In this document: piece by piece, positions 2,206-51,985 of the stretch | How positions within the stretch are numbered: position 1 is the first letter of the stretch | Layout of the letters: each line of letters begins with the position of its first letter | Assembly: GCA_963809195.1 (NCBI GenBank) | Contig: CAWEIQ010000007.1 | Span: 19,209-83,208 of the forward strand | Length of the DNA stretch: 64,000 bases | Source of the DNA: an uncultured Actinomycetota bacterium | Lineage (GTDB): Bacteria > Actinomycetota > Actinomycetes > Streptosporangiales > Streptosporangiaceae | Reading direction: 5' to 3' | The notes under the pieces: model-generated | What the model was told of the DNA's origin: nothing | What the model saw: the letters and a program-made list of their open reading frames with translations, nothing else | Database searches by the model: none | Position numbers and translations under genes: made by a program

Positions 2206-3399
2206 GTGTCCGGTGACCTGCTCGACCTGGTGCTGATCGCGCTCGCGGCCGCCTTCGCCGTGGCAGGGTACCGGCAGGGTTTCATCATCGGCGTGCTCAG
2301 CTTCGTTGGCTTCACCGGCGGCGCGCTGGCCGGTATCTACCTCGCCCCCGGCCTGGCCATGGCATTGACCAGCCGCCAGAATCTGCAGGCAGTCCTGGCC
2401 ATTATCGCGGTCTTCGCCACCGCCGTGGCCGGCATGCTCGTCGCGTCAGCGTTCGGCGTCCTGCTCCGCTCGCACGTGACGGGCCGCCCGTCGACGCTGA
2501 TCGACTCCATTGGAGGCGCGGCCGTAAACGTGGTCGCGATCCTCGTCCTCGCCTGGCTGATCGGCAACCTCGTCGCGTACGCGCCGCCGTTTCCTGCCAT
2601 TTCCCGGCAGGTCAATGACTCGCTGCTGCTGCGCGGAGTTGACCGGCTGATACCGCAGAGCGCGAGGCCGGAGTTCACCGCGCTGCGCAAGCTGCTGAGT
2701 ACCCAGCCATATGTGCAGGTCTTCGGAGCGCTCGGAGCTGAGACGGCGCTGAACGTACCGAGCCTCGACCGGTCCGTGCTGCACGCGGCCGGCCTGCGCA
2801 AGGACCGGAACAGCGTGGTGAAGATCGAGGGACTCGCGCCGACCTGCTCGCGCACCATCGAAGGCAGCGGCTTCGTGATCAGCAAGGATCACGTCATCAC
2901 GAACGCTCACGTAGTCGCAGGCATCGACAAGCCTGAGGTCTACACGAGGTTCGCCTCCGGCGAGCACCCGGCGCGCGTCGTGCTCTTCGACCCGGAGAGC
3001 GACATCGCCGTGCTGTACGTGCCGGGCCTCGATCTGGCAGCCCTGCACTTCGCGGATGCGGCGCCCTTCGGCGCGAGCGCGGTTGTGGCAGGCTACCCGC
3101 TCGACGCCGCGTTCACCGCCAGGCCCGCCCGGGTCGGCAGGTCTGAATTCGCCAGCGGCCCGGACATCTATGACACCAAGCGGGTGGTCCGCGACATCTA
3201 CCCGATCCGGGCCGTGGTGAAGCCCGGCAACTCGGGCGGCCCGCTGATCGCGCCGAATGGCCAGGTCTACGGCATGGTGTTCGCCGCCGCCGTCTCGGTG
3301 CCGCAGACCGGCTACGCGCTCACCGCCAGCCAGCTGGCCGATGACATCAGGGCTGGTGCCAACAGGACCGCGGCAACAGAAACGGGAGCCTGCCAGTAG
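2206..3399 (+). CDS. marP: MarP-type membrane-anchored trypsin-like serine protease (CvpA-like N-terminus)
   Basis: Four N-terminal TM helices plus a chymotrypsin-fold C-terminus (ITNAHVV, DIAVL, GNSGGP). It follows nth and Nudix, as Rv3671c does in M. tuberculosis. Intact 397-aa ORF. Confidence 0.8.
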   Translation: MSGDLLDLVLIALAAAFAVAGYRQGFIIGVLSFVGFTGGALAGIYLAPGLAMALTSRQNLQAVLAIIAVFATAVAGMLVASAFGVLLRSHVTGRPSTLIDSIGGAAVNVVAILVLAWLIGNLVAYAPPFPAISRQVNDSLLLRGVDRLIPQSARPEFTALRKLLSTQPYVQVFGALGAETALNVPSLDRSVLHAAGLRKDRNSVVKIEGLAPTCSRTIEGSGFVISKDHVITNAHVVAGIDKPEVYTRFASGEHPARVVLFDPESDIAVLYVPGLDLAALHFADAAPFGASAVVAGYPLDAAFTARPARVGRSEFASGPDIYDTKRVVRDIYPIRAVVKPGNSGGPLIAPNGQVYGMVFAAAVSVPQTGYALTASQLADDIRAGANRTAATETGACQ

Positions 3400-3429
3400 C
3401 GGGGTCCGCGAGGCTCGCCGGTTCCTTGG

Positions 3430-3966
3430 CTAGCCGCTCAGCGGCACCCTGAGGTCGCCAGGAGGGACCGCGTCGAGGCCGCGCGCTGCGATCACGTCGG
3501 CCAGTTCAGTGGTGGATGCCACGATGGCGTGCAGGTCGAGCCCGGGCGGCATGGTCGTCTGCGGTCCTGAAGGACCGGTCCCGGCGCCCGCGCCGCCTAT
3601 GGAGCCATCCACCGCTGCCGCGCCGCGCCTGAGCAGGCTGACGGCGCCCCTGCTGTTTCCACGCCTCGCGTGGGTCAGGCCCACCGCGATCTGTGCGAGC
3701 CCCTTCCAGAGTGCGCGCTGGTCCGCGGGCGAGGACTTCCAGGTCGCCTCGAGCACCTCGTGAGCGTGGAACGGCCGGCCGTCGTCAATGAGACGCTGCG
3801 CGAGCCGGACCGCCTCGGCAGGAGTCAGCTGCAGGTCCTCGGGCATGACGGCCTCGCCTGCGGCACCATGCGGCAGCGGCCTGCCGAGTCCGTCCCGTGG
3901 CCTGGCGTTCTTCGGCCGGCCCGCTGGGTCACGATCTCGCTCGGGGGCAGACCCCGGCAGCGTCAC
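3430..3966 (-). CDS. DUF309 domain protein
   Basis: RPFHAHEVLEATWK...LWKGLAQIAVGLTHARRGN is typical of DUF309. The GTG start overlaps the stop of the upstream hydrolase (GTGA at 3963-3966). Confidence 0.7.
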   Translation of the reverse strand: MTLPGSAPERDRDPAGRPKNARPRDGLGRPLPHGAAGEAVMPEDLQLTPAEAVRLAQRLIDDGRPFHAHEVLEATWKSSPADQRALWKGLAQIAVGLTHARRGNSRGAVSLLRRGAAAVDGSIGGAGAGTGPSGPQTTMPPGLDLHAIVASTTELADVIAARGLDAVPPGDLRVPLSG

Positions 3967-4883
3967 CGCTCCGGCTCGGGATCGAGCAGCCAGGAACGCA
4001 GCTCAAGGTCAAACCGGTCCGGCATCTCCTCGTGCGGGAAGTGCCCTGCCCCGTCGATCAGCCGCCACCGGTACGGCGCATCCACGTACGTGCCCGACCC
4101 GCGGGCGGCCCGCGGTCGGACACAGCTGTCGAGCGCTCCGTGAATCTGCAACGTCGGTGCCTGGACGGAGTTCCGCATCGCCTTGGCGTATCGCATTCCG
4201 TCGGGCCGTAGTCGCGACCTGAGCAGCCAGCGGTGGTATTCAAGCGCGGAGTGGGCCACGGACGGCAGGCTCATCGCGGCCCGGTAGATGCGCTCGGTGT
4301 CGGGATCGGGCCAGCCAGGGCCGGCCCAGGAGGAAAGCAGCATTCCGACGCGCTCGGCGTGATTGCGCAGCAGTTGCCGCTCGGGCAGCATCGGCATCTG
4401 GAAACCAAGCGCATAGCCGCTGCTGCGGCCCTGGCCGAGCGGATCGGCGAGCACGGCCGCGCGCAGCCGGAGCGGGTGCGCTGCCGAGACGATCGCGAGC
4501 CTGCGGATGACCTTCGGGAAGTAAGAGGCCATGGTCCACGCGATCATGCCGCCCCAGTCGTGCCCCACGACGACGGCGTTGGCCTCACCGAGCGAGCGGA
4601 CCATCCCGGCAGCGTCCGAGGCGGCCGTCACCAGGTCGTAGCCGCGCGGCGGCTTGTCGCTGCCGCCGTAGCCGCGCAGGTCAACGGCGACGGCGCGAAA
4701 GCCGGCGTCGCTGAGCGTGCTGAGCTGATGCCGCCATGTCCACCAGAACTCAGGGAAACCGTGCAGCAGCAAGACAAGCGGCCCGTCGCCGCTCTCTGCG
4801 ATGTGGAAGCGCGTGCCGTTGGCACTCACCGAGCGGTGGGACCACGGGCCGTCGAGATAGACCGACGCTTCGCCCCTGGTCAT
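3963..4883 (-). CDS. Alpha/beta hydrolase, epoxide-hydrolase-like
   Basis: LLLHGFPEFWWTWRHQ and the nucleophile elbow GHDWGG. Intact 306-aa ORF. Its position is equivalent to ephE next to marP in mycobacteria. Confidence 0.8.
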   Translation of the reverse strand: MTRGEASVYLDGPWSHRSVSANGTRFHIAESGDGPLVLLLHGFPEFWWTWRHQLSTLSDAGFRAVAVDLRGYGGSDKPPRGYDLVTAASDAAGMVRSLGEANAVVVGHDWGGMIAWTMASYFPKVIRRLAIVSAAHPLRLRAAVLADPLGQGRSSGYALGFQMPMLPERQLLRNHAERVGMLLSSWAGPGWPDPDTERIYRAAMSLPSVAHSALEYHRWLLRSRLRPDGMRYAKAMRNSVQAPTLQIHGALDSCVRPRAARGSGTYVDAPYRWRLIDGAGHFPHEEMPDRFDLELRSWLLDPEPER

Positions 4884-4886
4884 TGG

Positions 4887-5330
4887 CTACCTGGCTCGCG
4901 CCGGCGCAGACGCCGTGTCGGAGTCGTCGCGCTTGATCAGGGCCAGGTCGTCCGAGACTGTGGTCCTGGTCTTGCGCAGTCCGGTCAGTCGCTTGAACCG
5001 CGTGATGCCGATCAGCACGGCAAGGGCGGCGAGCACGACGTAGGTGCCCGCGACGATCAGGAAGGCCGCCCAGAGCCAGATCCCAGCGGTGTGCAGCCCG
5101 TAGGCGTACGCAAAGCTCAGCACCATGAGCACGAGGCAGCCGACGAACGCGGCCATGCCGAACAGCACTGCCCCGATCCCGAGCCGGCGGGCATCGGTCT
5201 TGAGTTCCAGCTTGGCCAGGTCGACCTCGTACCTGACGAGCTGTGAGATGTCGCTGACGGCCAGTGCGACAAGGTCGCCAAGAGTCTCCTTGGCGGTCGG
5301 CTCCTGACCTGTGAACGTGGGTCCGGCCAT
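4887..5330 (-). CDS. Small membrane protein of the actinobacterial holin-X / DUF1469 type
   Basis: Two TM helices after LVRYEVDLAKLELKTDARRLG. The start is taken at MAGPTF (5330) inside ORF 4887..5486. Confidence 0.6.
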   Translation of the reverse strand: MAGPTFTGQEPTAKETLGDLVALAVSDISQLVRYEVDLAKLELKTDARRLGIGAVLFGMAAFVGCLVLMVLSFAYAYGLHTAGIWLWAAFLIVAGTYVVLAALAVLIGITRFKRLTGLRKTRTTVSDDLALIKRDDSDTASAPARAR

Positions 5331-5517
5331 ACTCCCTCCTTTCCTCGCTGTGGAGTCCAGTCTCCCGCATGTGCTCATGTGATATTCGCTTGGCGTCCCA
5401 TTCGGCAGTAACGGGATTTCCCCAGCTGGACAACTGCCGCCAGGCCGGTCACGCTGACTCACCCCGCGAAACCGACATGGGCGCAACTGCCTGGCGAAAG
5501 GCCGGTAGAGACGAAGC

Positions 5518-6627: not shown

Positions 6628-6712
6628 CTGAGTTACGGAACCGCTCTGTCCCCCCGGAGCCGGGCCGTACGGCGACCCCCGCTCTCCCCCCCGGCGGGGG
6701 TCGCCCCTTTTT
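6628..6712 (+). ncRNA. 6C small RNA (approximate 5' end)
   Basis: Two hairpins have C-run loops (CCCCCC at 6650-6655; CCCCCCC at 6686-6692). The second is a perfect 12-bp stem (6671-6682 / 6694-6705) followed by TTTTT (6708-6712). A TAnnnT -10-like hexamer TAGGAT lies at 6619-6624. It is divergent from a HAD gene, the neighbourhood I recall for 6C/B11 next to Rv3661. Confidence 0.6.
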
Positions 6713-41577: not shown

Positions 41578-42350
41578 ATGACATCTGATGCAAAGATCCT
41601 GGCATCTTCGGCGTCCGCTCGCGAGAACGCGGGCGCAGAGGGGTCGTCCTCCCGGCAAGCACGGCGGAGGATCTCCCCCCAGGCAAGCACCGATCCGCGG
41701 CGCTGGCTCACCCTGCTGATCTTGCTGCTGGCCGCGTTCATGAACCTGCTCGATGTCTCGATCGTCAACATCGCGATCCCGTCGATTCAGCGGAACCTCG
41801 GCGCCAGCCACGCCGACGTCCAGTGGGCGCTTGCCGGGTTCACGCTCGCTTACCGCGCTGGTCCTGATCGACACGGCGGCCGGCTCGGCGACACGTACGG
41901 GCGCAAGCGGCTGTTCCTGATCGGCGTCGCCGGCTTCACAGTGATGTCCGCGCTGTGCGGAGCCGCACGAAAGCCCAGGTCAGCTGATCGCCTTCCGCGT
42001 GGTGCAAGGCAGCCACGTGGGCGGGGCACCATGATCCCGCAGGTGCTCGCGGTCATCCAGGTGCGTTCCGCACCTGCCTGCACGACCGCCTGGTCGCCAC
42101 CGACCCGACGGCCACGCCTGCATCGTGCCGGCCGCGTGCCTGGGGTCGCGCTACCGGGCGTCAGGCGGCGTCCACCGCGCTGCCGGCGGCGGCCAAGCAC
42201 GCGATCGCAGGAATCGGAAAGAAGGCCACGGGATTGATTTCGCGGCTGCGCTGGAGCGGACGCTGTTCTTTCAGGTCGGCGTCTTCGTGTTCAGCTTCCT
42301 GCTGATGCTCGCGCTGCCGAGGATGAGGCGCGCCGAGCCGGCCACTACTG
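41578..42350 (+). pseudogene. DHA2/EmrB-type MFS transporter remnant (internal deletion plus frameshifts)
   Basis: TM1-TM4 are recognisable (LLILLLAAFMNLLDVSIVNIAIPSIQ, GGRLGDTYGRKRLFLIGVAGF), as is a last-TM fragment (LFFQVGVFVFSFLLMLALP in ORF 42125..). Only about 770 nt lie between the start and the convergent CDF gene, against an expected ~1.5 kb. Confidence 0.7.
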
Positions 42351-43329
42351 ATGCATGGGACGCTCATGATCAGCGTGACCGGCCAGCTCGAGCTGGAACG
42401 TCGAGTGGCCGACGTCGAAGTGCCCGCGCAGGCAGTCCTGGAGCGCGTCGAGCATGACCGCGCTGCGGCCGTCGGCGAGCACGTCGGGGTCCACCACGAC
42501 GTGCACCGACAGGACCGGCAGCCCCGAGGTGATCGTCCACGCGTGCAGATCGTGCACGTCGCGGACACCGGTCAGGCCGATCAGGTGCGCTCTGACCTCG
42601 CTCAGGTCGATGCCGCGCGGGCTCGCCTCGAGCAGTACGTTGATCGCGTCGGCGAGCAGCCGCCAGGTGCGCGGCAGGATCAGCGCCCCGACCAGCAGTG
42701 AGGCGATCGGGTCGACACGGTGGAGCCCGGTGGTCGCGATCACGATGCCCGTCACGATGACGGCGACGCGCGCCCAGGGCGTCGGACGCGACTTCGAGGA
42801 ACGCGCCCCTGATGTTGAGGCTCTCGGCCTGGCCGCGGCGCAGCACGAGCAGGCTCACGCCGTTGGCCGCCAGCGCGATCACGCCGAAGATCACCAGCAA
42901 TGGCGACTCGATCGACGGAGGCGCGAGCAGCCTCCTGATGGCCTCGACAATGATGAAAGCCGACAGCGCGAACAGGACCACGGCGTTCACCATCGCCGCA
43001 AGGATCTCTGCCCTGGCGTAACCGAACGTCCGCCGCAGGGTGGCCGGCCTCGTCGCGAAGAGCACGGCCAGCAGGGAGAGGCCGACGCCGCCGGCGTCGG
43101 CCGCCATGTGCGCGGCGTCTGCGAGCAGGACCAGCGCGCCGCTGACCCACGCGCCCACGGCCTCGGCAATGGCGACGCTGATCGTAATCAGCATGACGAT
43201 CAGCAGCGACTTGCTGTGCTCGCCGGTCAGCGTCAGCCGGGAGCCATGTGCATGCGCGTGCACGCCTGCCGTCCCGTGTGAGATGGCTGGCTGCCTGGCG
43301 CGTTCTTCCCGCCCCCTGCTCGCCATCAA
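42345..43329 (-). pseudogene. Cation diffusion facilitator (CzcD-like) transporter, one frameshift
   Basis: TM1-4 with LLADAAHMAADAGG are in ORF 42370..43329. TM5-6 and the cytoplasmic domain (VRDVHDLHAWTITSG) are in ORF 42345..42755. The junction is near 42775. Confidence 0.8.
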
Positions 43330-43422
43330 CAGGCGCGGATTGGGTTGAAGGCGCCGTGTGCTCGGGTCGCCGGCCCTGGCCTAGCTGGTCACAGCTGGGT
43401 TCTCGGTCGTGGCCTGGACCGC

Positions 43423-43806
43423 TCATGACAGTGGCGAGTCGTCCTCTCCTGGGGCGAGCAGTTCGTAGGCGGGGTTGATCATGACGGCAACGTTCCCGCG
43501 CATGCCGACCTGCCCAGTGAACCTGACCTTCGCGCCAGGGTCGAGCCCGGGGATGTGTGACCGCCCGTAGAACAGGGCGGTCAGCTGGCCTGTCGCGTCA
43601 ACGATCTCGCAGGCCAGGACGGTGTTGCGCTCGACCGGCCTGATTTCGACGGCATGCACGCGGCCTTCGACCCTGGCCCTGCCGCGCCTTGGCACCTGCG
43701 CTATCGGCGTCGCTGACTTGGACGGGACCGGCCGGTTGTACCGCGATATGTCCGTGGCCTCCTCGGGCGGAGGAGCGGGCGGCTCAGGCGGCGTCGGCGC
43801 GCCCAA
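43423..43806 (-). CDS. OB-fold nucleic-acid-binding domain protein
   Basis: VEGRVHAVEIRPVERNTVLACEIVDATGQLTALFYGR. It is a small conserved actinobacterial gene. Intact. Confidence 0.65.
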   Translation of the reverse strand: MGAPTPPEPPAPPPEEATDISRYNRPVPSKSATPIAQVPRRGRARVEGRVHAVEIRPVERNTVLACEIVDATGQLTALFYGRSHIPGLDPGAKVRFTGQVGMRGNVAVMINPAYELLAPGEDDSPLS

Positions 43807-43956
43807 GGCGGGCTCGCGATCGCTCGAATCCCGGCGTGCATCCGGACCTTCAGCGTCGGCGGTCAGGTCGACTCCGGATTGCGCACGATCGGCCCCGCCG
43901 GCATCGGCAGGCTCTGGCGCTCCCTCGGCCGGCTCGGCCTGCTGGGCCCTTCGGGC

Positions 43957-46183
43957 TCATCGCGCCGTGTACCTGCGGCCTCTCTCGGCTGCGCCCCTGC
44001 CGGCTGGCCCTGGCCCAGTCGGCGCTGTCCCGGCCCGCGCGGGCTCCGTCGGCTCGTGTCCGGCCTCGGCTCGGCCAGCCTCGGCTCGCTCGTCGGCTTC
44101 GCGTTCGGCTGCGGCCGCCTTGGCGCGCTCGCGGGCCGCCACGCTCTCGACCCTGCGCCGGACGTCGAACGGCACGATCGTCGCGGCCGCGTGCGGGATC
44201 TGGCTCACGACGCTGGCGATCCGGTCCGCGGTGCGGTCGTGCAACAGCCGTCCGAGCAGCGGGGCGTAGCTGCGCCTGGGCAGGACGGCCGTCACGCCGA
44301 CCCCCGGCAACTGCGCCTCAGCCTGGACCATCTCGGCGGCGGCCTTGGCGAGCCGCCGGTCGGGGCAGTCGATCAGATCGAGCACCACGCCGGTGTCGGC
44401 GCGTACCCAGTCCTCGCGCAGCCGGGCGGCCTGAGCGCTGTCGATGACGAAATGCACGGCGCGCAGGCTGGTCGGCCGGAGGCTCCGCGCGTACCTGAGC
44501 GCGGCCAGCGTCGCCAGGTCGAACTCGTCGACGAAGACGTAGACGGTCCTGCGCGAGTAGGACGGCGGCGAGGTGGGCCTGCTCGGCTTGCGGTCACCTG
44601 TGCTGATGTGCTCGAGCACCTCGGCTTCCATCTGGTACTGCCGGTTCAGCCTGATCAGCAGCGGCACGCCGATGGCGAAGACGATCAGGACCAGCCACGC
44701 GCCCTCGGTGAACTTCACGACCGCGAAGATCAGGACGACGATCAGCGACGTCAGCCCGGCCGCGAAGTTGATTGCGCGCTTGTGCCGCCAGCCGCGTTCC
44801 TTGTGCACGTGGTGGTACTTGGACATGCCGAACCCGGCGAGCGTGAACGCGGTGAACACGCCGAGCGCGTAGAACGGCACCAGCCGGTTGACGTTTGATC
44901 CCGCGACGGCGAGCAGGATGCAGCGACAGCACCGCGAGCACGATGATGCCGTTGGAGAACACGAGCCGGTGCCCGCGTTTGGTCAGCCAGCGCGGCAAGA
45001 ACGCGTCTTCGGCCACGAAGCTCGCGAGGAACGGGAAGCCGTTGAAGCTGGTATTGCCGCCCGTGTACAGGATCAGGGCGGTCGCCGCCTGCACGACGAT
45101 GAACATCACGTGCCCGAACGTCGACGTGCCGAAGACGAGCTTGGCCTCCTGCGATATCACCGTCGGCACGCCGGAGACATATGGCGTGGCGTGCGTGACG
45201 TGAGCCAGCCACGAGACCCCCGCCACCAGGGTGCCCAGGATCACGCCCTCGGTGACCAGCACGCGCCGCGCGTTGATGCCCTCGGGCGGCCGGAACGCGC
45301 TGACAGCGTTGGACACCGCTTCGATGCCTGTCAGCGACGAGCCGCCGTTCGCGAACGCTCGCAAGAGAATGAAGACCAGCCCGAAGGTGATGAGCGAGTT
45401 GTGGTTGGGCGTTACACCGGCGCCGTAGACGTGGGCACCGGGCGCCACGTGCCACCTGGGCAGGTTGCCGAATATCTCGCGGACCAGGCCGACCACGATC
45501 ACCAGCATCATTACGCCGGTGAACAGGTAGGTCGGGACCGCGAAGGTGCGGCCCGCCTCGCGGATCCCGCGCAGGTTGCCGTAGAGCATCAGCAGCACCA
45601 CGCAGATCGAGATGATCGTCAGCAGGTTGGGGTTACGAAGGGCCGGGATCGCGGACGCCACGGCCGCGGTGCCCGCCGCTACCTGCACGGCTACCGTGAC
45701 CACATAGTCGATCAGCAGGGCCACGGCCGCGACCTGAGCGACCCTGGGGCCGAAATTCTCGCGCGCCACCACGTAGGAGCCGCCCGCCCTGGTGTAGATC
45801 GTGACGACTTCGCGATAGGACAGCACGACCAGCACCATCACGAACAGCACGACGCCGGTGAGCGGCAGGATCAGCGCGAACGCGGCGATCCCCAGGCCGC
45901 CCTTGAGCAGCTCGATCAGGATTTCCTCGGTGCCGTAAGCAGATGATGAGATGCCGTCGGGCGCGAGCACGCCGAGCGCAAGGGGCTTCGACAGCCGCTC
46001 CTCGCGGAGCTGCTCGGTGACCAAGGGCGGCCCGAGGAGCCGCCGCTTGATGGCATAACCAAGGCTCTCGCCCAGGTCCTCCTGGCTGTCGGCTGCGCTC
46101 GCAGCCCTGACCGTTGCCACTCCTGTCGTTCCTCCGCTCACCCCGGGCTGCACACTGCCGGCAACTCCGAACGTGGCCTTCAT
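43957..46183 (-). pseudogene. APC-family permease with a C-terminal cytosolic domain, one frameshift
   Basis: The 12-TM core is in ORF 44594..46183 and the C-terminal part in ORF 43957..44880. The junction reads LAVLSL/ILLAVAGSNVNRLVPFY, with one extra base near 44925. Confidence 0.8.
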
Positions 46184-46402
46184 ACCATCTGGGCACCTCC
46201 GCTTCGTACGGAGATGGCAGAGTGAGGCAGCGGAGGTGCGCTGGCGCTGAGAGTCTTCCCAGCGCCTGTGTTGTTCCCAGGGAGCAGAGCGTGCTACCCG
46301 GAATGCCGTGACCAGATGCCACTTCGCACCTGCAACGGCGTTTCCTGGGTAGAAGAACGGCAGCGTCAGAGTCAGGCGCCAGTGCAGAAAGGCTGCGTGG
46401 AC

Positions 46403-47711
46403 ATGACCTCATCACCGGCGGCTGCGGCGCCGGAAGCGGGCAACGGGCGCGTACTGCACCTATCGGACCTGAATGGCCGGCCAATTACAGACAAGCGGGG
46501 AGAGTCGATCGGCAAGCTCGCCGATGTGATCGTGCGGCTGCGCGGCGCCGAGAACCCGCTGGTCACAGGGGTTGTCGCCGCAGTCGGCAGCCGGGAGGTC
46601 TTCGTTCCCCTTGAGCAAGTCAGTTCGTTCGACGGGGAGGTGCTCAAGCTGACGAGCGCGCGCCTGGACTTGCGCCAGTTCGAGCGCCGCCATGGCGAGG
46701 TACTGCTCCGCGCCGATGTGCTCGGGCACCGCCTCATCGACGTGCCGGCCGCGCACCTCGATCAAGGCGGTCGACCTCGAACTGCGGCAGCAGGGGTCCG
46801 AGTGGGTGCTGGCCGGCGTCGACACCCACCGCCGCCCGCGAGGGTTGCTGCGGCTGCTCGCTCCCGACGCGAGAGCGCGCCAGTTCGAGGAGTGGGTGAA
46901 CTACGAGCCGCTGATCGGGCATGCGAGCAGCGCGCTGCTGCGCGGCCCGTTCGGGCGCATCCGACGGCTCAAGCCCGCGCAGATCGCCGACCTGCTCGAG
47001 GAGGCGTCCAAGGCGGAGGAGACCGAGATCCTCGGTCAGGTACACGTCGACCCCGAACTCGAGGCCGATGTGTTCGAGGAGCTCGACGAGGACCTGGCTA
47101 CCCGCCTGCTGGGCGCCAGGACCGACGCGGAGATCGCCGAAGTGCTCAACCGGATGCGGGCAGACGACGCCGCAGACGCGATCTCCGAGCTGCCGCAACG
47201 CCGTCGGCAGCCGGTGATCGACCTGCTGCCACCTGGTCAGCGCGCGAAAGTGCTGACGCTCATGGGGTTCAACCCGACCAGCGCCGGCGGCCTGATGGGC
47301 ATGGACTTCGTCGCCGTTCCTGAGCACAGCCTGGTCGCCGGCGCTGTCGCCGCGGTGAGCGGCGCGAACAACCTGCAGCCTGAGGCTTTGACCAGCGTGC
47401 ACGCGCTCGATCCCGACGGCAGGCTGTGCGGCGTCGTCAAGCTGGTGACACTGCTCCAGGCCGATCAGGCGGGCAGGATCAGCGACATATTCGACGACGA
47501 TCCCGTGCGGATCGGGGCCGACACCGACGTGGTCGACGTCGCCGTTCTGATGAGCGACTACAACTTGATCACCATTCCGGTGGTCGACGAGGAACGGACG
47601 ATGATCGGCCTGATCACCGTCGACGACGTGCTCGAAGTCACGCTGCCCGAGGACTGGCGGCGTCGTGAGGCCGCCGAGCCGCCTGACTCCAGGCGAGGCA
47701 AGAGGCAATGA
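46403..47711 (+). pseudogene. Soluble PRC-barrel, MgtE_N and CBS-pair protein (MgtE cytosolic module without a pore domain), one frameshift
   Basis: The PRC-barrel-like N-terminus is in ORF 46268..47323. The MgtE_N (LKPAQIADLLEE...AEVLNRMRADDAADAISELP) and CBS pair are in ORF 46692..47711. One extra base lies near 46759. There are no TM helices. Confidence 0.8.
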
Positions 47712-47729
47712 CCGAGCCGGGCGGGCGGG

Positions 47730-49640
47730 ATGCTCCAGGGGAGCGCCCCGTCCCGCCAGAGCGTCCGGCTCCAGCCCAGCCAGAGCGTCCGGCCAGCCAG
47801 CCGTCCCAGCCAGCCGCAGCCGGACCAAGCCGCCCGGCCTGACTCGGCTCCACCGAGCGGGCCTGGGCGCGGCGCCGCTCGTTCCGCGAGCGCCGGCGGC
47901 GCTGGGCGCTCGCAGGGCGGGACGAATCAGCCGCAGGATGGGACGAATCAGCCGCAGGATGGGACGAGTCAGTCGCAGGGCCGGGCGTCGTCCGCGGCGG
48001 CGCTCGCGCCGCCGCGGCCTCACGCAAACGACTCGGACACGGGGGAGATCGAGGGGGCACTCGGCCGGATCAGGGCGGGCGACGAGCAGCATTCTGGCTG
48101 GCGCCGCCAGCTCGTGACGTTCCTGGCGATCGTCGGGCCTGGATTGATCGTCATGGTCGGCGACAACGATGCGGGCGGGGTCGCGACTTACGCGCAAGCT
48201 GGTCAGAACTACGGATACAGCCTGTTGTGGGTCCTGTTGCTCCTCATCCCTGTACTCATCGTCAACCAGGAGATGGTGGTCAGGCTCGGCGCCGTGACCG
48301 GGGTCGGCCACGCGAAGCTGATCTACGAGCGGTTCGGTAGGTTCTGGGGCCTGTTCAGCGTCGTCGACCTGTTCGTGCTGAACTTCCTGACCATCGTCAC
48401 GGAGTTCATCGGCATCTCGCTGGCCATGAGCTACTTCGGGGTCAGCCCTTACATCTCGGTGCCGATCGCCGCGGCCCTGTTGATAGGAATCACAGCGAGC
48501 GGGAGTTTCCGGCGCTGGGAACGCGCCATGTTCCTTTTCATCGCCGCCAGCATCGTCCTTTTTGTGCCGCTGGTGATCTTCTCCCATCCCCGCGTCGGGT
48601 CGGTTGCCTCTCACTTCTTCGTGCCAGGCGTGCATGGCGGGGTCAGCTCGAACGCGGTGCTGCTGATCATCGCGATCGTGGGGACGACCGTGGCGCCGTG
48701 GCAGCTGTTCTTCCAGCAGTCCAACGTGATCGATAAGAGGATCACGCCGCGGTTCATCAGGTATGAGCGAGCCGACACCGTCCTAGGCTCACTGGTCGTC
48801 GTCGTCAGCGCGGCCGTCATCCTCGTCGCGACCGTGTACGCGGTCATGGGGACGTCGCGCGCCGGGCACTTCACCGATGCCCTCGGGGTCGCTGACGCAT
48901 TCCGCAGCAAGAGCAGCTTCCTGGGCGCGGTCTTCGCCCTTGTGCTGCTCTTCGCGAGCATCATCGGGGCCGCGGCGGTCACCCTGTCGACCAGCTATGC
49001 GTTCGGTGATGTGTTCAACCTCAGACACTCGCTGCACCGCAAGTTCCGCGACGCGAAGGAGTTCTACGCGAGCTACACGGTGGTCGTCGTGCTTGCCGCG
49101 GGGATCGTGCTGGTCCCTGGCGCGCCGCTCGGCCTGCTCACCACCGCGGTCCAGGCGCTGGCAGGGGTTCTGCTGCCCAGCGCGAGCGTCTTCCTGCTGC
49201 TGCTCTGCAACGACCCTGAGGTTCTGGGCCCGTGGACGAACCCGCGCTGGCTCAATGCGATCGCCGCGATCATCATCGGGCTCTTGCTGACGCTCTCCGG
49301 CACGCTGGTGGTGACCACGCTGTTCCCCGGCCTGAGCGCGCCGGACGTCGTCGTCTGGATCGCGGCCACCCTCGCGGTCGGTTCCACGCTTGCCTACGGA
49401 TGGCTTCGGTTCACGGCGGCGCACCGAGTGACAACCGCAAGACGGGCGGTGGCATCGCGGTCGACTCTGGCTGACCTGACGCCCGCTGAGCGCGCGAACT
49501 GGCGGATGCCGCCGCTGGCGCTGCTCAAGCCCGTCATCTGGTCCCCTGTGATGAAACTCACGATCGCGGTGATGTGGGTCTATCTCGTGATCTCGGTCCT
49601 GCTTCTGATCGTCAAGGCCGTCCAGCTCGCCGCCGGTTAA
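47730..49640 (+). CDS. Nramp-related transporter with a Mg-type site (NRMT-like), copy 1; start uncertain
   Basis: Nramp fold with GDNDAGG in place of DPGN and GTTVAPW in place of the (A)xxMPH motif. It has a long low-complexity N-terminus. An alternative ATG at 47708 overlaps the upstream stop but is in another frame. Confidence 0.8.
   Translation: MLQGSAPSRQSVRLQPSQSVRPASRPSQPQPDQAARPDSAPPSGPGRGAARSASAGGAGRSQGGTNQPQDGTNQPQDGTSQSQGRASSAAALAPPRPHANDSDTGEIEGALGRIRAGDEQHSGWRRQLVTFLAIVGPGLIVMVGDNDAGGVATYAQAGQNYGYSLLWVLLLLIPVLIVNQEMVVRLGAVTGVGHAKLIYERFGRFWGLFSVVDLFVLNFLTIVTEFIGISLAMSYFGVSPYISVPIAAALLIGITASGSFRRWERAMFLFIAASIVLFVPLVIFSHPRVGSVASHFFVPGVHGGVSSNAVLLIIAIVGTTVAPWQLFFQQSNVIDKRITPRFIRYERADTVLGSLVVVVSAAVILVATVYAVMGTSRAGHFTDALGVADAFRSKSSFLGAVFALVLLFASIIGAAAVTLSTSYAFGDVFNLRHSLHRKFRDAKEFYASYTVVVVLAAGIVLVPGAPLGLLTTAVQALAGVLLPSASVFLLLLCNDPEVLGPWTNPRWLNAIAAIIIGLLLTLSGTLVVTTLFPGLSAPDVVVWIAATLAVGSTLAYGWLRFTAAHRVTTARRAVASRSTLADLTPAERANWRMPPLALLKPVIWSPVMKLTIAVMWVYLVISVLLLIVKAVQLAAG
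47919..47981 (+). repeat. 3 x 21-bp in-frame tandem repeat
   Basis: gggacgaatcagccgcaggat occurs twice, then gggacgagtcagtcgcagggc. They encode GTNQPQD GTNQPQD GTSQSQG in the N-terminal tail of the transporter. Confidence 0.85.
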
Positions 49641-49758
49641 ACGCGCTCAACCCAGGAATAGCCGCGGCGCTACAGCCGTTGGCCTTGGTGGATGTGACCT
49701 GCGCCGAATTGACAGTTCTGCGCGGGATCGGGCATCCTCGATCTTGATCGATGAAGGA

Positions 49759-49961
49759 CACCTCGTTCGGTGAGGCGTCTTCACGGACACAGGCCACTGA
49801 TCCCAACCGTCGAGAGACGCTCCGGATCAGGACACCTCTCCCCGGCCTAAGGGGTGAGGCCAAGTGGCTGCGCAGGCGGACGGTGTTCCGCGGGCCGCGA
49901 GGCTCGCAGATCACAGTGCCGCGCTACGCCGTGGAGTGCCAAAGCTCTAACGAGAGAGGTG
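49759..49961 (+). promoter_or_regulatory. M-box (ykoK-type) Mg2+ riboswitch aptamer
   Basis: The conserved cores are present in order: CGTTCGGTGAGGC (49764-49776), GCCACTGATCCC, GTCGAGAGACGCT (49809-49821), TAAGGGGTGAG, AGTGCCAAAGCTCTAACGAGAG (49935-49956). P1 closes it, CACCTC (49759-64) with GAGGTG (49956-61). Confidence 0.75.
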
Positions 49962-50287
49962 CCTGCCCCAGGGGTTGCCTGGGGTGCGCCGCCTCCCGAC
50001 GGGTGACAGTGTTGCCGCGCTGTCCGCGTGTTGCCATGGACGCGGCCAGACGGCACCAGGCTGGAGGGAGGCGAGTCGTGGAACACGATAGACCGGGCCG
50101 GACTCGGCCCCATTCGCCGCTCTCTTTGCCCGTTTCGGGCACGCGCCGGCGCCGTCCAGCCCCTTGCTTCCCGGTCGTTATCAGCCAGAACTGACCGCAG
50201 CGGCAAGAACCGCAATTCGCATCTGGCGGCAAGCCCCGCGTGCCCCCCGATCCCGCCTGCTCTTCGGCGGTGAAAGGGGTGTTCGCC

Positions 50288-51985
50288 ATGACCACCAGCC
50301 CGAGCCTGGCTGCTCCCGGCCGTGCCGCGGCCGTCGACACCAACCGCGTCGTGGACATCAAGGGTGCCTTCGGCTCCATCTCTGCCGAGGACACCGGCGC
50401 CCGGCGGTCGGTGCCAGCCAAGCTGAAGACGCTGCTTGCGATCGTCGGTCCCGGCGTGATCGTGATGGTTGGCGACAACGATGCCGGGGCGTTCTCGACT
50501 TACGGGCAGGCAGGTCACACCTACGGGACCAAGCTGCTGTGGACGTTCTTGCTGCTGGTTCCCGTGCTTTACGTGAATCAGGAGATGGTGCTCAGGCTGG
50601 GCGCCGTCACCGGCGTTGGTTACGCCAAGCTGATCCTCGAGCGGTTCGGCCGGTTCTGGGGCGCGTTCAGCGTGCTGAACTTGTTCATCTTGAATGCGCT
50701 GACGATCGTGACGGAGTTCATCGGCATCGCGCTCGCCGCAAGCTATCTCGGCGTGCCGAAGATCGTCGCGGTCATCCTGGCCAGCCTTGTGATCGTGGTA
50801 GCCGCCTCGACAGGCAGCCTGCGGCGGTTCGAGCGGATGGCGATGGCGTTGTGCGCTGGATCGCTGCTGCTCGTGCCGCTGTACGTGCTGGCGCACCCGC
50901 CGGCAGGCCAGGTGGCGACCGGCTTCGTGATCCCGTCGATCCCCGGCGGCGGCGGGCAGCTGGGCACCGTGATGCTGCTGATCATCGCGATCGTCGGCAC
51001 AACGGTCGCGCCCTGGCAGCTGTTCTTCCAGCAGTCCTACATCATCGACAAGCGGATCACGCCGCGCTTCATGCGGTACGAGAAGGCCGACCTGTGGATC
51101 GGCATCGTCGTCGTGGTCATCGGCGGCGGCGCGCTGATGGGCGCGACCGCTGCGGCGTTCGCTGGCGCCAGGCACGGCCAGTTCACCGATGCCGCCGGCC
51201 TGGCCACAGGGCTAGCCGCCTACGCCGGCCACGCGGCCGGCGCGCTGTTCGCGGTCGCCCTGCTCGACGCCTCGATGATCGGCGCGTTCGCCGTCTCGCT
51301 CTCCACCGCCTACGCGGTCGGTGACGTGCTCGGGCTGAAGCACTCGCTGCACAGGGGCGTGAAGCAGGCCAAGGGCTTTTACGCGATGTACGCGGCACTG
51401 ATCGCGCTGGCGGCGACGATCGTGCTGATTCCCGGCTCGCCGCTCGGCCTGATCACGGTGGGCGTCCAGGTGCTGGCCGGCGTCCTGCTGCCAAGCGCGA
51501 CCGTCTTCCTGCTGCTGCTCTGCAACGACAAGGAAGTGCTCGGCCCCTGGGTGAACAACCTGCGGCACAACGTCGCGGCCGGCATCGTGGTCGGCGTGCT
51601 CGTGATGCTCTCGGCGATCCTGATGATCTCGGTCGTGTTCGGCAAGGTCTCCGCCGGTGAGGTTATTGGCATCCTGGCTAGCTGCGCGATCGCTGCCGCA
51701 GCGACCGGCGGATTCCTGGCCGTCCGCGCCTGGCGGCGTCGCACCTCACCGCGCCTTGCGGCTCTCGCACCACGAGCGGTCGTGCGAGGAGGAGCGGTGC
51801 CAGCGGCCCGGCGGTCCGAGGAGCGCGAGAAGCGTGAGAACTGGCGGATGCCGCCGCTCGCGATGCTCAAGCCCGCGCCGATGTCTCTCGCGCGCACGGT
51901 CGGCATGTCGGCCATGTACGTGTACCTCGCCGTGGCGATCATCCTGGTGATCGTGCGGGTCGCGGAGATCGCCCTCGGCCACTAG
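50288..51985 (+). CDS. Nramp-related transporter with a Mg-type site (NRMT-like), copy 2
   Basis: ATG 50288 follows GAAAGGGG. GDNDAGA and GTTVAPW occupy the two metal-site positions. Intact, and downstream of the M-box. Confidence 0.85.
   Translation: MTTSPSLAAPGRAAAVDTNRVVDIKGAFGSISAEDTGARRSVPAKLKTLLAIVGPGVIVMVGDNDAGAFSTYGQAGHTYGTKLLWTFLLLVPVLYVNQEMVLRLGAVTGVGYAKLILERFGRFWGAFSVLNLFILNALTIVTEFIGIALAASYLGVPKIVAVILASLVIVVAASTGSLRRFERMAMALCAGSLLLVPLYVLAHPPAGQVATGFVIPSIPGGGGQLGTVMLLIIAIVGTTVAPWQLFFQQSYIIDKRITPRFMRYEKADLWIGIVVVVIGGGALMGATAAAFAGARHGQFTDAAGLATGLAAYAGHAAGALFAVALLDASMIGAFAVSLSTAYAVGDVLGLKHSLHRGVKQAKGFYAMYAALIALAATIVLIPGSPLGLITVGVQVLAGVLLPSATVFLLLLCNDKEVLGPWVNNLRHNVAAGIVVGVLVMLSAILMISVVFGKVSAGEVIGILASCAIAAAATGGFLAVRAWRRRTSPRLAALAPRAVVRGGAVPAARRSEEREKRENWRMPPLAMLKPAPMSLARTVGMSAMYVYLAVAIILVIVRVAEIALGH

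Follow-up and report, generated by a model that had tools for sequence, protein, structure and literature searches.

The closest described relatives of the locus analyzed in this work are the "mgtE-nramp operons" reported by Shin et al. (2014, PLoS Genet 10:e1004429, PMC4072509), who named a group of Nramp-related carriers NrmT and observed, just upstream of most NrmT genes, a gene encoding a homologue of the MgtE cytoplasmic domain. In that study, association with the M-box, a Mg2+ riboswitch, was used as a sign of Mg2+ specificity, and it was speculated that the MgtE-like fragment could serve in cytoplasmic feedback regulation or as a metal chaperone. We have found no publication dealing with this fragment after 2014 in the literature searched. 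The carriers themselves have received more recent attention, and the transport of Mg2+ and Mn2+ by EleNRMT of Eggerthella lenta is not coupled to protons (Ramanadane et al., 2022, eLife 11:e74589, PMC8806188). The signature of the NRMT clade is a DxxG motif in helix 1, in place of DxxN, and a TxxA/T motif in helix 6, in place of A/CxxM (PMC8806188). Here we have analyzed a stretch of 64,000 nucleotides (hereafter, the window) from contig CAWEIQ010000007.1 of the assembly GCA_963809195.1, which belongs to an uncultured actinomycete. On its plus strand, a gene encoding a soluble MgtE-like protein (46403..47711; hereafter, the sensor) is located directly upstream of a gene encoding a carrier of the NRMT type (47730..49640; NRMT-1).

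This locus is an actinobacterial instance of the operon kind described in 2014, and thus the pairing is not new. A sequence-only reading of the window had proposed a split Mg2+ sensor/transporter pair and had taken its association with an Nramp-type carrier for an undescribed one; the homology of the sensor, the type of carrier and the conservation of the pairing have held, and the novelty has not. Taken as a whole, the explanation that we find best, and that we hold to be reasonably probable, is that the operon is of the known kind, that the sensor gates the NRMT carrier in trans, and that the frameshifts interrupting these genes are artefacts.

The arrangement resembles that of the A. capsulatum pair Acp2976/Acp2977 and the Ca_c0685 operon of C. 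acetobutylicum in having the soluble MgtE-domain gene directly upstream of the carrier gene and on the same strand, and it shares with the A. capsulatum pair the lack of a riboswitch in front. It differs from the 2014 operons in its host, an uncultured actinomycete, in its carrier, whose N-terminus is long and disordered and whose C-terminus has two additional membrane helices, and in the presence directly downstream of an NRMT paralogue (NRMT-2) preceded by an M-box. The sensor has in addition tandem PRC barrels and an LPxxWRRR tail, which are unmentioned in the accessible sections of the 2014 text; both are found throughout the family in our alignment and are probably also present in the 2014 proteins.

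The coding sequence of the sensor is distributed between two frames in the window, separated by an extra base at position 46760 that is discussed below. Pfam recognizes a PRC domain in the first frame (46403-46750; E 1e-6), and an MgtE_N domain (E 1.8e-21) and a CBS domain (E 1.2e-10) in the next one (46752-47708), which agrees with the MgtE_N and CBS assignments made in the sequence-only reading. Once the extra base is removed, the gene encodes a protein of 435 aa that aligns end to end and with no gaps with intact homologues of 435 aa, that is 95% identical to the homologue P0001 from a metagenome-assembled genome (MAG) labelled Streptosporangiaceae, and in which the invariant sequence LIDVPxAHLIKAVDLEL is restored. 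As had also been noticed from the sequence, the protein lacks a pore and a transmembrane helix: Pfam gives no match to the C-terminal five-helix pore domain of MgtE (PF01769), and Kyte-Doolittle hydropathy, averaged over 19 residues, peaks at 1.61, in a strand of the CBS region with Asp residues in it. The NCBIfam mgtE model (TIGR00400) covers positions 28-252 of its 450, with 109 bits against a cut-off of 232.75. The net charge of the protein is -21.

Five parts can be distinguished in the sensor. The first PRC barrel (aa 17-83; 46451..46651, plus strand) matches PF05239 over aa 18-80 with 29-30 bits against a cut-off of 21.2 and is built of beta strands in the model described below. Next to it, another PRC-like barrel, a divergent one, spans the frameshift (aa 99-169; 46697..46910, plus strand). 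The latter has no match in Pfam, and its support comes from a profile-profile comparison (hhalign of family columns 14-92 against 96-172, probability 92.8%, E 4e-7) and from the model, where its beta strands are of high confidence. According to the profile comparison, this second beta domain is a diverged copy of the first, and therefore the N-terminus of the sensor is a tandem PRC barrel. Then come the MgtE_N helical domain (aa 185-287; 46956..47264, plus strand), delimited by Pfam, by a profile alignment to structures of the Protein Data Bank (PDB) and by the residue frequencies of the family, and the CBS pair (aa 294-413; 47283..47642, plus strand), delimited by Pfam, by the alignment to MgtE and by superposition of the model. 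The last part is a basic tail, LPEDWRRR (47643..47666, plus strand), which is specific to this family and occupies the place where MgtE has its acidic plug helix (E253-D259); in the alignment of 45 family sequences its P is present in 41, its W in 35 and its R/K in 40. We have found no publication that mentions a PRC barrel together with MgtE in the literature searched.

An AlphaFold2 model was made for P0001 from the same 45-sequence family alignment (pLDDT 90, predicted TM-score 0.85). It is composed of two beta domains (17-83 and 99-169), a helical domain (185-287), the CBS pair (294-413) and a short C-terminal helix. The C-terminal 250 residues of this model superimpose on the Mg2+-bound MgtE cytosolic domain 2yvy with a TM-score of 0.85 and a root mean square deviation of 2.0 Å, and the family profile matches the same structure with an E-value of 1e-65. 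By its sequence and its predicted fold, the sensor is thus a soluble homologue of the whole cytosolic Mg2+-sensing unit of MgtE, that is, of the N domain plus the CBS pair, whereas the tandem PRC barrels and the basic tail are plausible docking elements. When compared with the MgtE channel of T. thermophilus (TtMgtE; 2YVX, 2YVY, 2ZY9), it has in common the N domain, the CBS pair and the acidic residues between them, but it has no pore domain, carries two PRC barrels at the N-terminus and a basic motif instead of the plug helix, scores below the NCBIfam mgtE cut-off and belongs to a family in which the ATP-stacking Phe227 is mostly Leu.

To compare the sensing residues, the 45 sequences of the sensor family were mapped onto TtMgtE numbering. 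In the MgtE_N domain, D222, D254, D255 and D258 of the sensor correspond to E59, D91, D92 and D95 of TtMgtE, and in the CBS region D407, D408 and E411 keep the acidic residues D246, D247 and D250; E327 is also present among the acidic residues at the N-CBS interface. At the positions equivalent to E59, D91, D95, D246, D247 and D250, an acidic residue is found in 39 to 45 of the 45 sequences. The interface residues kept in the family correspond to those listed for the MgtE sites Mg4, Mg5 and Mg7, which MgtE structures have in common and without which, when they are mutated, Mg2+-dependent gating is lost (PMC10200709). The ATP site of the MgtE CBS domains, formed by Y170, R187, D188, N203 and F227 (PMC5529423), is not kept: the equivalent residues in the window are S331, V348, T349, D364 and L388, and the position of F227, which stacks on the ATP adenine, is Leu in 41 of the 45 family members. 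Judged by its residues, therefore, the sensor keeps the acidic cluster of the MgtE N-CBS interface and loses the ATP site and the plug helix.

The carrier NRMT-1 has 636 aa as the open reading frame (ORF) stands, with an Nramp core at aa 151-505 and two extra membrane helices at the C-terminus. It matches the Pfam Nramp family (PF01566) with an E-value of 1.3e-77, and it scores 115 bits against the cut-off of 430 of the NCBIfam MntH model. Its PDB matches are EleNRMT (7qia; E 9e-57), the aluminium transporter NRAT (1e-19) and MntH (~1e-14). The two motifs that the sequence-only reading had pointed out in place of the canonical ones are those of the NRMT signature: GDNDAGG in helix 1 (48159..48179, plus strand) provides the DxxG element (D-A-G-G), and its NDAGG is identical in EleNRMT, the closest structure, while GTTVAPW (48681-48701), which opens the helix-6 motif GTTVAPWQLFFQQSN (48681..48725, plus strand), provides TxxA. 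In the stretch APWQLFFQQSN, the positions of the proton-pathway His residues of helix 6b are occupied by W and Q, neither of which can take up a proton; in EleNRMT they are Trp and Asn.

The likeness to EleNRMT (7QIA) includes NDAGG, GTT(I/V)APW...QSN and the Gln of helix 10. The two proteins can be aligned over ~400 residues but are clearly diverged, the position of the second helix-6b His is Gln here and Asn in EleNRMT, and the carrier of the window has N- and C-terminal extensions. The C-terminal extension, of ~100 aa, is present in both paralogues of the window (49380-49640 and 51700-51985) and contains the motif NWRMPPLA(L/M)LKP; the conserved motif NWRMPPLALLKP of NRMT-1 (49497..49532, plus strand), ahead of the last membrane helix, is common to NRMT-2 and specific to this actinobacterial clade. 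Both paralogues also have an N-terminal GDI(E/K)GA(L/F)G motif; neither this motif nor the C-terminal extension occurs in EleNRMT or in the partner NRMTs of distant lineages, which have 410-450 aa. These motifs and matches place NRMT-1 in the NRMT clade of the SLC11/Nramp family; we infer Mg2+ as its substrate, and by analogy it is expected to share with EleNRMT a H+-uncoupled transport of Mg2+ and Mn2+.

The adjacency of sensor and carrier was examined at two distances. The close set comprises 43 loci with usable flank, i.e., that of the syntenic relative L001 and 42 of the 45 recovered in a genome scan with the sensor, all of them from soil MAGs labelled Streptosporangiaceae, Actinomycetota or Actinomycetes. 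A gene of the NRMT-1 type lies directly downstream of the sensor in 39 of these 43 loci. Five related loci (L029, L030, L035, L038 and L039; ~2700-5440, minus strand) contain a second, divergent sensor-Nramp pair that points away from the main pair and whose products are 31-36% (sensor) and 32-35% (Nramp) identical to those of the window, and thus the pair has been duplicated, or acquired twice, as a unit.

Farther away, a search of 1.8 billion representative proteins revealed a broad family of full-length members, with 301 matches at E < 1e-30 and identities down to ~28%. A subgroup of 14 distant sequences, ~30% identical to the sensor of the window, was used in a metagenome scan that provided 80 loci, and counting was restricted to the 73 whose downstream flank was 400 nt or longer. 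The Nramp gene is found directly downstream and on the same strand in 66 of the 73 and directly upstream in one; the neighbours are unrelated in six (e.g., histidine kinase, OpgC, ScpA). An Nramp gene is also adjacent, in either order, in six intermediate lineages inspected by protein look-up. The partner carriers that a motif scan recovered have NDAGG and GTT[IV][AT]P[WY]. In 3 of 40 distant loci, the sensor gene is directly preceded by an M-box, an arrangement that was already part of the 2014 description.

The neighbourhood survey suggested in the sequence-only reading has thus found the adjacency to be conserved. It could be argued that the adjacency is coincidental or reflects co-regulation only, and that the sensor regulates something unrelated, as might be thought from the six distant loci with other neighbours and from four close genomes that have the sensor without NRMT-1. 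We consider this extremely improbable, since more than 90% of the loci keep the adjacency down to ~30% identity, the two genes occur in either order, their stop and start codons overlap, and a paralogous clade, described below, is equally tightly coupled to DUF1003 genes, which argues that the role of the family is to partner membrane proteins. The sensor-Nramp adjacency is far beyond chance, and in different phyla NRMT genes are accompanied by the accessory protein almost as a rule.

Some of these pairs are located on plasmids. Pairs annotated as a "CBS domain-containing protein" beside an "Nramp family divalent metal transporter" were found on plasmids of Mycobacterium sp., Mycolicibacterium aubagnense, Rhodococcus, Arthrobacter and Alicyclobacillus, and the plasmid that bears one of the pairs is mycobacterial and mobilizable, has 23 kb and comes from a human sample. 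The plasmid pairs of Mycobacterium sp. (L137) and Alicyclobacillus (L141) adjoin transposase genes and that of Rhodococcus (L139) adjoins mercury-resistance genes, and for this reason the sensor-NRMT cassette appears to move horizontally. In the Mycolicibacterium locus an MgtC gene is found two genes downstream of the pair, which adds to the links with Mg2+.

The junction between both genes is also conserved. The stop codon of the sensor (47709-47711) is separated by 18 nt from the first in-frame start of NRMT-1 (ATG 47730), close to the spacing given in the sequence-only reading. In the relatives, the start codon used for the transporter overlaps the stop of the sensor, forming an ATGA (47708..47711, plus strand, in the window): the 39 related loci examined all have [AG]TGA at the junction, in the reading frame of the transporter in ~30 cases, and the transporter of L001 is annotated from this start. 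In the window, the ATG at 47708 is in another frame than the main ORF of NRMT-1, and this frame closes at 47840-47842; the first residues read from it are MTEPGGRDAPGERP in the window and MSEPGGRDAPGERP in L001. Given that the overlap is in frame in ~30 of the 39 relatives and out of frame here, a 1-nt indel between 47708 and 47842, produced by an assembly error, is probable, and the hidden indel that the sequence-only reading suspected in the N-terminus of the transporter is therefore likely. As read from the sequences, the ATGA overlap indicates translational coupling of the sensor and NRMT-1.

The region affected encodes a hypervariable N-terminal extension of NRMT-1 (47708..48029, plus strand) that is rich in Pro, Ala, Gly and Arg, is of low complexity and varies greatly in length between relatives; its sole start in the main frame is ATG 47730. 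A 21-nt tandem repeat at 47911-47979 (3.3 copies, 91% matches) encodes GTNQPQD repeats, and two weaker repeats are found at 47756-47815.

Downstream of the operon lies the leader of the tandem paralogue NRMT-2, which contains an M-box aptamer (49755..49965, plus strand; RF00380, 131.9 bits against a gathering score of 44, E 2e-29, model positions 1-169), found in the equivalent position in 30 related loci. NRMT-2 (50285..51985, plus strand; Pfam Nramp E 3.9e-75) is 52% identical to NRMT-1 and lacks a sensor gene of its own; its motifs are GDNDAGA and GTTVAPW. The spacer between the aptamer and the start of NRMT-2 is ~320 nt long and has a fold z-score of -2.2, and a terminator scan detected no terminator-like site between 49965 and 50285. 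The closest described equivalent is Ca_c3329, an nrmT gene with an M-box and without an MgtE-like gene of its own (Shin et al., 2014), which NRMT-2 resembles in following a full-length M-box, but from which it differs in standing in tandem after a sensor-NRMT operon and in the lack of a canonical intrinsic terminator in the spacer. From the aptamer match, NRMT-2 is predicted to be controlled at the RNA level by an M-box riboswitch. Riboswitch control was also considered for the sensor operon of the window and was rejected, because the M-box at 49755-49965 is the sole match of Rfam, run in E-value mode over 45900-50400, and none was found upstream of the sensor.

The lack of an M-box in front of NRMT-1 is one of the arguments for a different substrate: the pair could handle Mn2+ or another transition metal, with NRMT-1 as mainly a Mn2+ importer and a sensor that senses Mn2+, and NRMT-2 would be the only Mg2+ carrier of the locus. 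The riboswitch-less NrmT of A. capsulatum, Acp2977, which has an MgtE-like neighbour, fully rescued a Mn2+-transport mutant and only weakly a Mg2+ one (PMC4072509), EleNRMT carries Mn2+ besides Mg2+, and a gene for a CDF-type cation-efflux protein is located two genes upstream of the sensor. On the other hand, the residues of the NRMT-1 binding site are those found in EleNRMT and also in NRMT-2, which follows an M-box, some lineages have an M-box in front of the sensor-NRMT operon itself, and the acidic cluster of MgtE, with its hard oxygen ligands, is retained in the sensor. Moreover, no Mn2+ riboswitch was matched by Rfam in the leader of the operon, where sites for protein metalloregulators were not looked for. 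In terms of sequence, the M-boxes found here and in distant operons provide a direct genetic link to Mg2+, and we regard the Mn2+ alternative as unlikely, although it is a serious one for the riboswitch-less paralogue.

Our preferred reading, gating by the sensor in trans, can be put as follows. NRMT-1 would be an Nramp-related and probably H+-uncoupled importer of Mg2+, and possibly of Mn2+. The soluble protein, probably a dimer like the cytosolic domain of MgtE, would dock on the cytoplasmic face of the NRMT, plausibly through its PRC barrels and its basic tail. At a high cytosolic Mg2+ concentration, the ion would clamp the N domain to the CBS domains, as it does in MgtE, and the complex would shut uptake, so that the carrier would acquire in trans a feedback gate that in CorA and MgtE is present in cis. 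NRMT-2 would have a transcriptional layer of control through the M-box and might perhaps be gated by the same protein too.

Several observations weigh against this gating mechanism. One of the Mg2+-ligand positions, D226, is Asn in 38 of the 45 family sequences (N387 in the window), and the acidic sites of the plug helix, Mg2 and Mg3, are lost, E253-D259 being replaced by L-P-x-x-W-R/K-R/K-R. The sensor/NRMT-1 operon of the window has no M-box. Four loci of the close set (L009, L016, L018 and L019) keep an intact sensor gene and have lost NRMT-1. Finally, the pair tested by Shin et al., in which Acp2976 is the fragment and Acp2977 the NrmT, showed, besides the preference for Mn2+ mentioned above, that co-expression of Acp2976 left the Mg2+ rescue unchanged, and the NrmTs of C. 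acetobutylicum move Mg2+ without the fragment, which is thus not needed for transport (PMC4072509). The null co-expression result is compatible with an inhibitor, but it does not constitute a demonstration.

The survival of the sensor after the loss of NRMT-1 in these four genomes implies that its target cannot be NRMT-1 alone, and in three of them the sensor is directly followed by the M-box and NRMT-2; it is therefore probable that the sensor acts on NRMT-2 as well. In L009 (7300-8550), an unrelated ORF of ~400 codons occupies the place of NRMT-1, and the sensor, the M-box and NRMT-2 are kept. The differences between NRMT-1 and NRMT-2 were also considered as a possible mark of the docking surface, and this was discarded, as the 29 group-specific positions are mostly conservative and scattered and no clear cytosolic patch is seen among them.

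The observations of 2014 bear as well on the opposite possibility, that the soluble protein is a positive factor, either a metal chaperone or buffer at the cytoplasmic exit of the carrier or a factor for its assembly or stability. Metal chaperone activity was indeed raised as an alternative by Shin et al., the sensor is very acidic, and the translational coupling suggests matched amounts of both proteins. However, NrmTs work in heterologous hosts without the fragment and gained nothing from its co-expression, the conserved residues are those of the regulatory interface of MgtE and not of a carrier-type site, and free cytosolic Mg2+ is millimolar (PMC4072509), so that a chaperone would be of little obvious use. 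A positive role of this kind seems to us quite unlikely.

Since the reading frame of the sensor is broken, it must also be asked whether the gene is a true pseudogene and the pair non-functional in this organism. The frameshift, which the sequence-only reading had placed near 46759, is real in the sequence and consists of a single extra G at 46760 (46760..46760, plus strand, +1), the window having CACCTCGATCAAG and L001 CACCTT-ATTAAG. To evaluate it, 14 genes called on L001 were translated and compared with the window. About 20 frame breaks were found in the 18 kb between 37458 and 55942, i.e., about one indel per kb, and they affect most of the genes compared, splitting those for a Germane domain protein, a histidine kinase, a response regulator, an MFS transporter, a CDF efflux protein, an APC permease, the sensor, a DUF4126 protein, a MatE transporter and a CoA-transferase. 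Protein identity on either side of the breaks is 90-97%, and 94% for the sensor after the shift, and the dN/dS ratio of the sensor against L001 is 0.037 before and 0.068 after it. The same sort of frame breaks occurs in the loci of several long-read MAG relatives. The related locus L032, with 96% identity in protein, has a frameshift of its own, but was discarded as the source of the window because its DNA identity is just 89.5%, which makes it another genome.

On account of these ~20 comparable breaks, the high identity and the low dN/dS on both sides, the extra G is most likely an assembly or sequencing error and not a sign of gene decay. The pseudogene alternative, which we had considered and which the window-wide frame breaks and the dN/dS led us to reject, is very improbable, and the dN/dS of 0.04-0.07 indicates that the sensor is under purifying selection. 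The window looks like an indel-prone, probably long-read, assembly, and all its ORF calls have to be read accordingly. The MFS transporter gene (41578-42355) encodes 614 aa in L001, and the window matches only its ends (aa 1-164 and 497-597), which points to an internal deletion of ~330 codons or to a misassembly.

The locus is ordered as an APC-family permease gene on the minus strand, the sensor and NRMT-1, and the M-box and NRMT-2, and the annotation of L001 shows an identical layout. The 5' leader and promoter region of the sensor-NRMT operon (46216..46402, plus strand; ~190 nt) was delimited by aligning 20 related upstream regions, and the blocks GGCAGAGTGAG, GTGTTCCCAGCG, GCTACCCG, CTGGGTAGGAGAACGGCAGC and AGAAAGGCTGCGT are kept across ~20 related genomes, AGAAAGGCTGCGT being the ribosome-binding site ahead of the ATG of the sensor. 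The sequences GCTACCC and GGGTAG, on either side of a variable stretch, are complementary. RNAalifold found no covarying structure in the leader and gave just a short GCAGC/GCUGC hairpin near the ribosome-binding site, single-sequence folds agreed only partially, and the leader had no match in the Rfam scan mentioned above. This region may correspond to a promoter that includes operator sites, or else to a leader RNA not yet described.

The genes encoding the CDF cation-efflux protein, which in L001 has Cation_efflux and ZT_dimer domains, and the APC-family permease, of 887 aa, are located divergently upstream of the sensor operon (42348-46183, minus strand). An extra C is found at 44924, within the permease gene, and there are two frame breaks in the CDF gene. 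Together with the sensor, they may form a small metal-homeostasis neighbourhood. Elsewhere in the window, a 6C RNA was detected at 6634-6709 (RF01066, 53.2 bits against a gathering score of 47); this RNA family is actinobacterial, and the match fits the G+C content of 69% and the closest relatives of the host, which are soil MAGs labelled Streptosporangiaceae.

The sensor family has a paralogous PRC-MgtE_N-CBS clade, 28-31% identical to the sensor of the window, with the same architecture and an LPxxW tail. A DUF1003 gene (PF06210, E 4e-35) comes after the gene of this clade in four places, Tsukamurella tyrosinosolvens, Nocardia farcinica, Nonomuraea gerenzanensis and the metagenome contig L143 (loci L140, 2983-4796; L143; L144; L145). 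In Tsukamurella and in L143, both genes overlap by 4 nt. In the Tsukamurella pair (WP_068524600/WP_068524599), the soluble architecture and the tight coupling to a downstream membrane-protein gene are the same as in the window, but the partner is a small DUF1003 protein and not an NRMT, and the tail is acidic after LPxxWR. Contig L143 (1-4715) has both kinds of pair side by side, in the order sensor-NRMT, TatA, sensorB-DUF1003. There is no DUF1003 gene in the window, and this thread is based on four loci, all of them outside the window locus. Thus, the DUF1003 partner that the sequence-only reading had named for mycobacteria is correct for the paralogous clade in Mycobacteriales; the pairing of M. 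tuberculosis would be a further example. The literature searched contained nothing on DUF1003 together with MgtE, and DUF1003 itself is scarcely mentioned in it. A tentative generalization, which we find possible rather than probable, is that PRC-PRC-MgtE_N-CBS proteins are detachable Mg2+-sensing gating subunits, different clades of which would gate NRMTs or DUF1003 proteins in trans. If this were true, DUF1003 proteins would be a new family of divalent-cation channels or transporters.

The window by itself leaves the picture of 2014 unchanged and provides no special handle on the role of the partner protein. What the survey adds is that the accessory protein is a near-obligate neighbour of the carrier, that the two appear to be translationally coupled, that it keeps the acidic cluster and carries PRC barrels and a basic tail, and that it has a sister clade paired with DUF1003, and these points offer concrete constructs and mutants for testing a regulation in trans. 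Cytosolic Mg2+ gates are built into CorA and MgtE, and we know of no such gate in the NRMTs. The accessory MgtE-like protein would be the obvious candidate for the gate that protects the cell against a Mg2+ overload caused by a H+-uncoupled NRMT importer.

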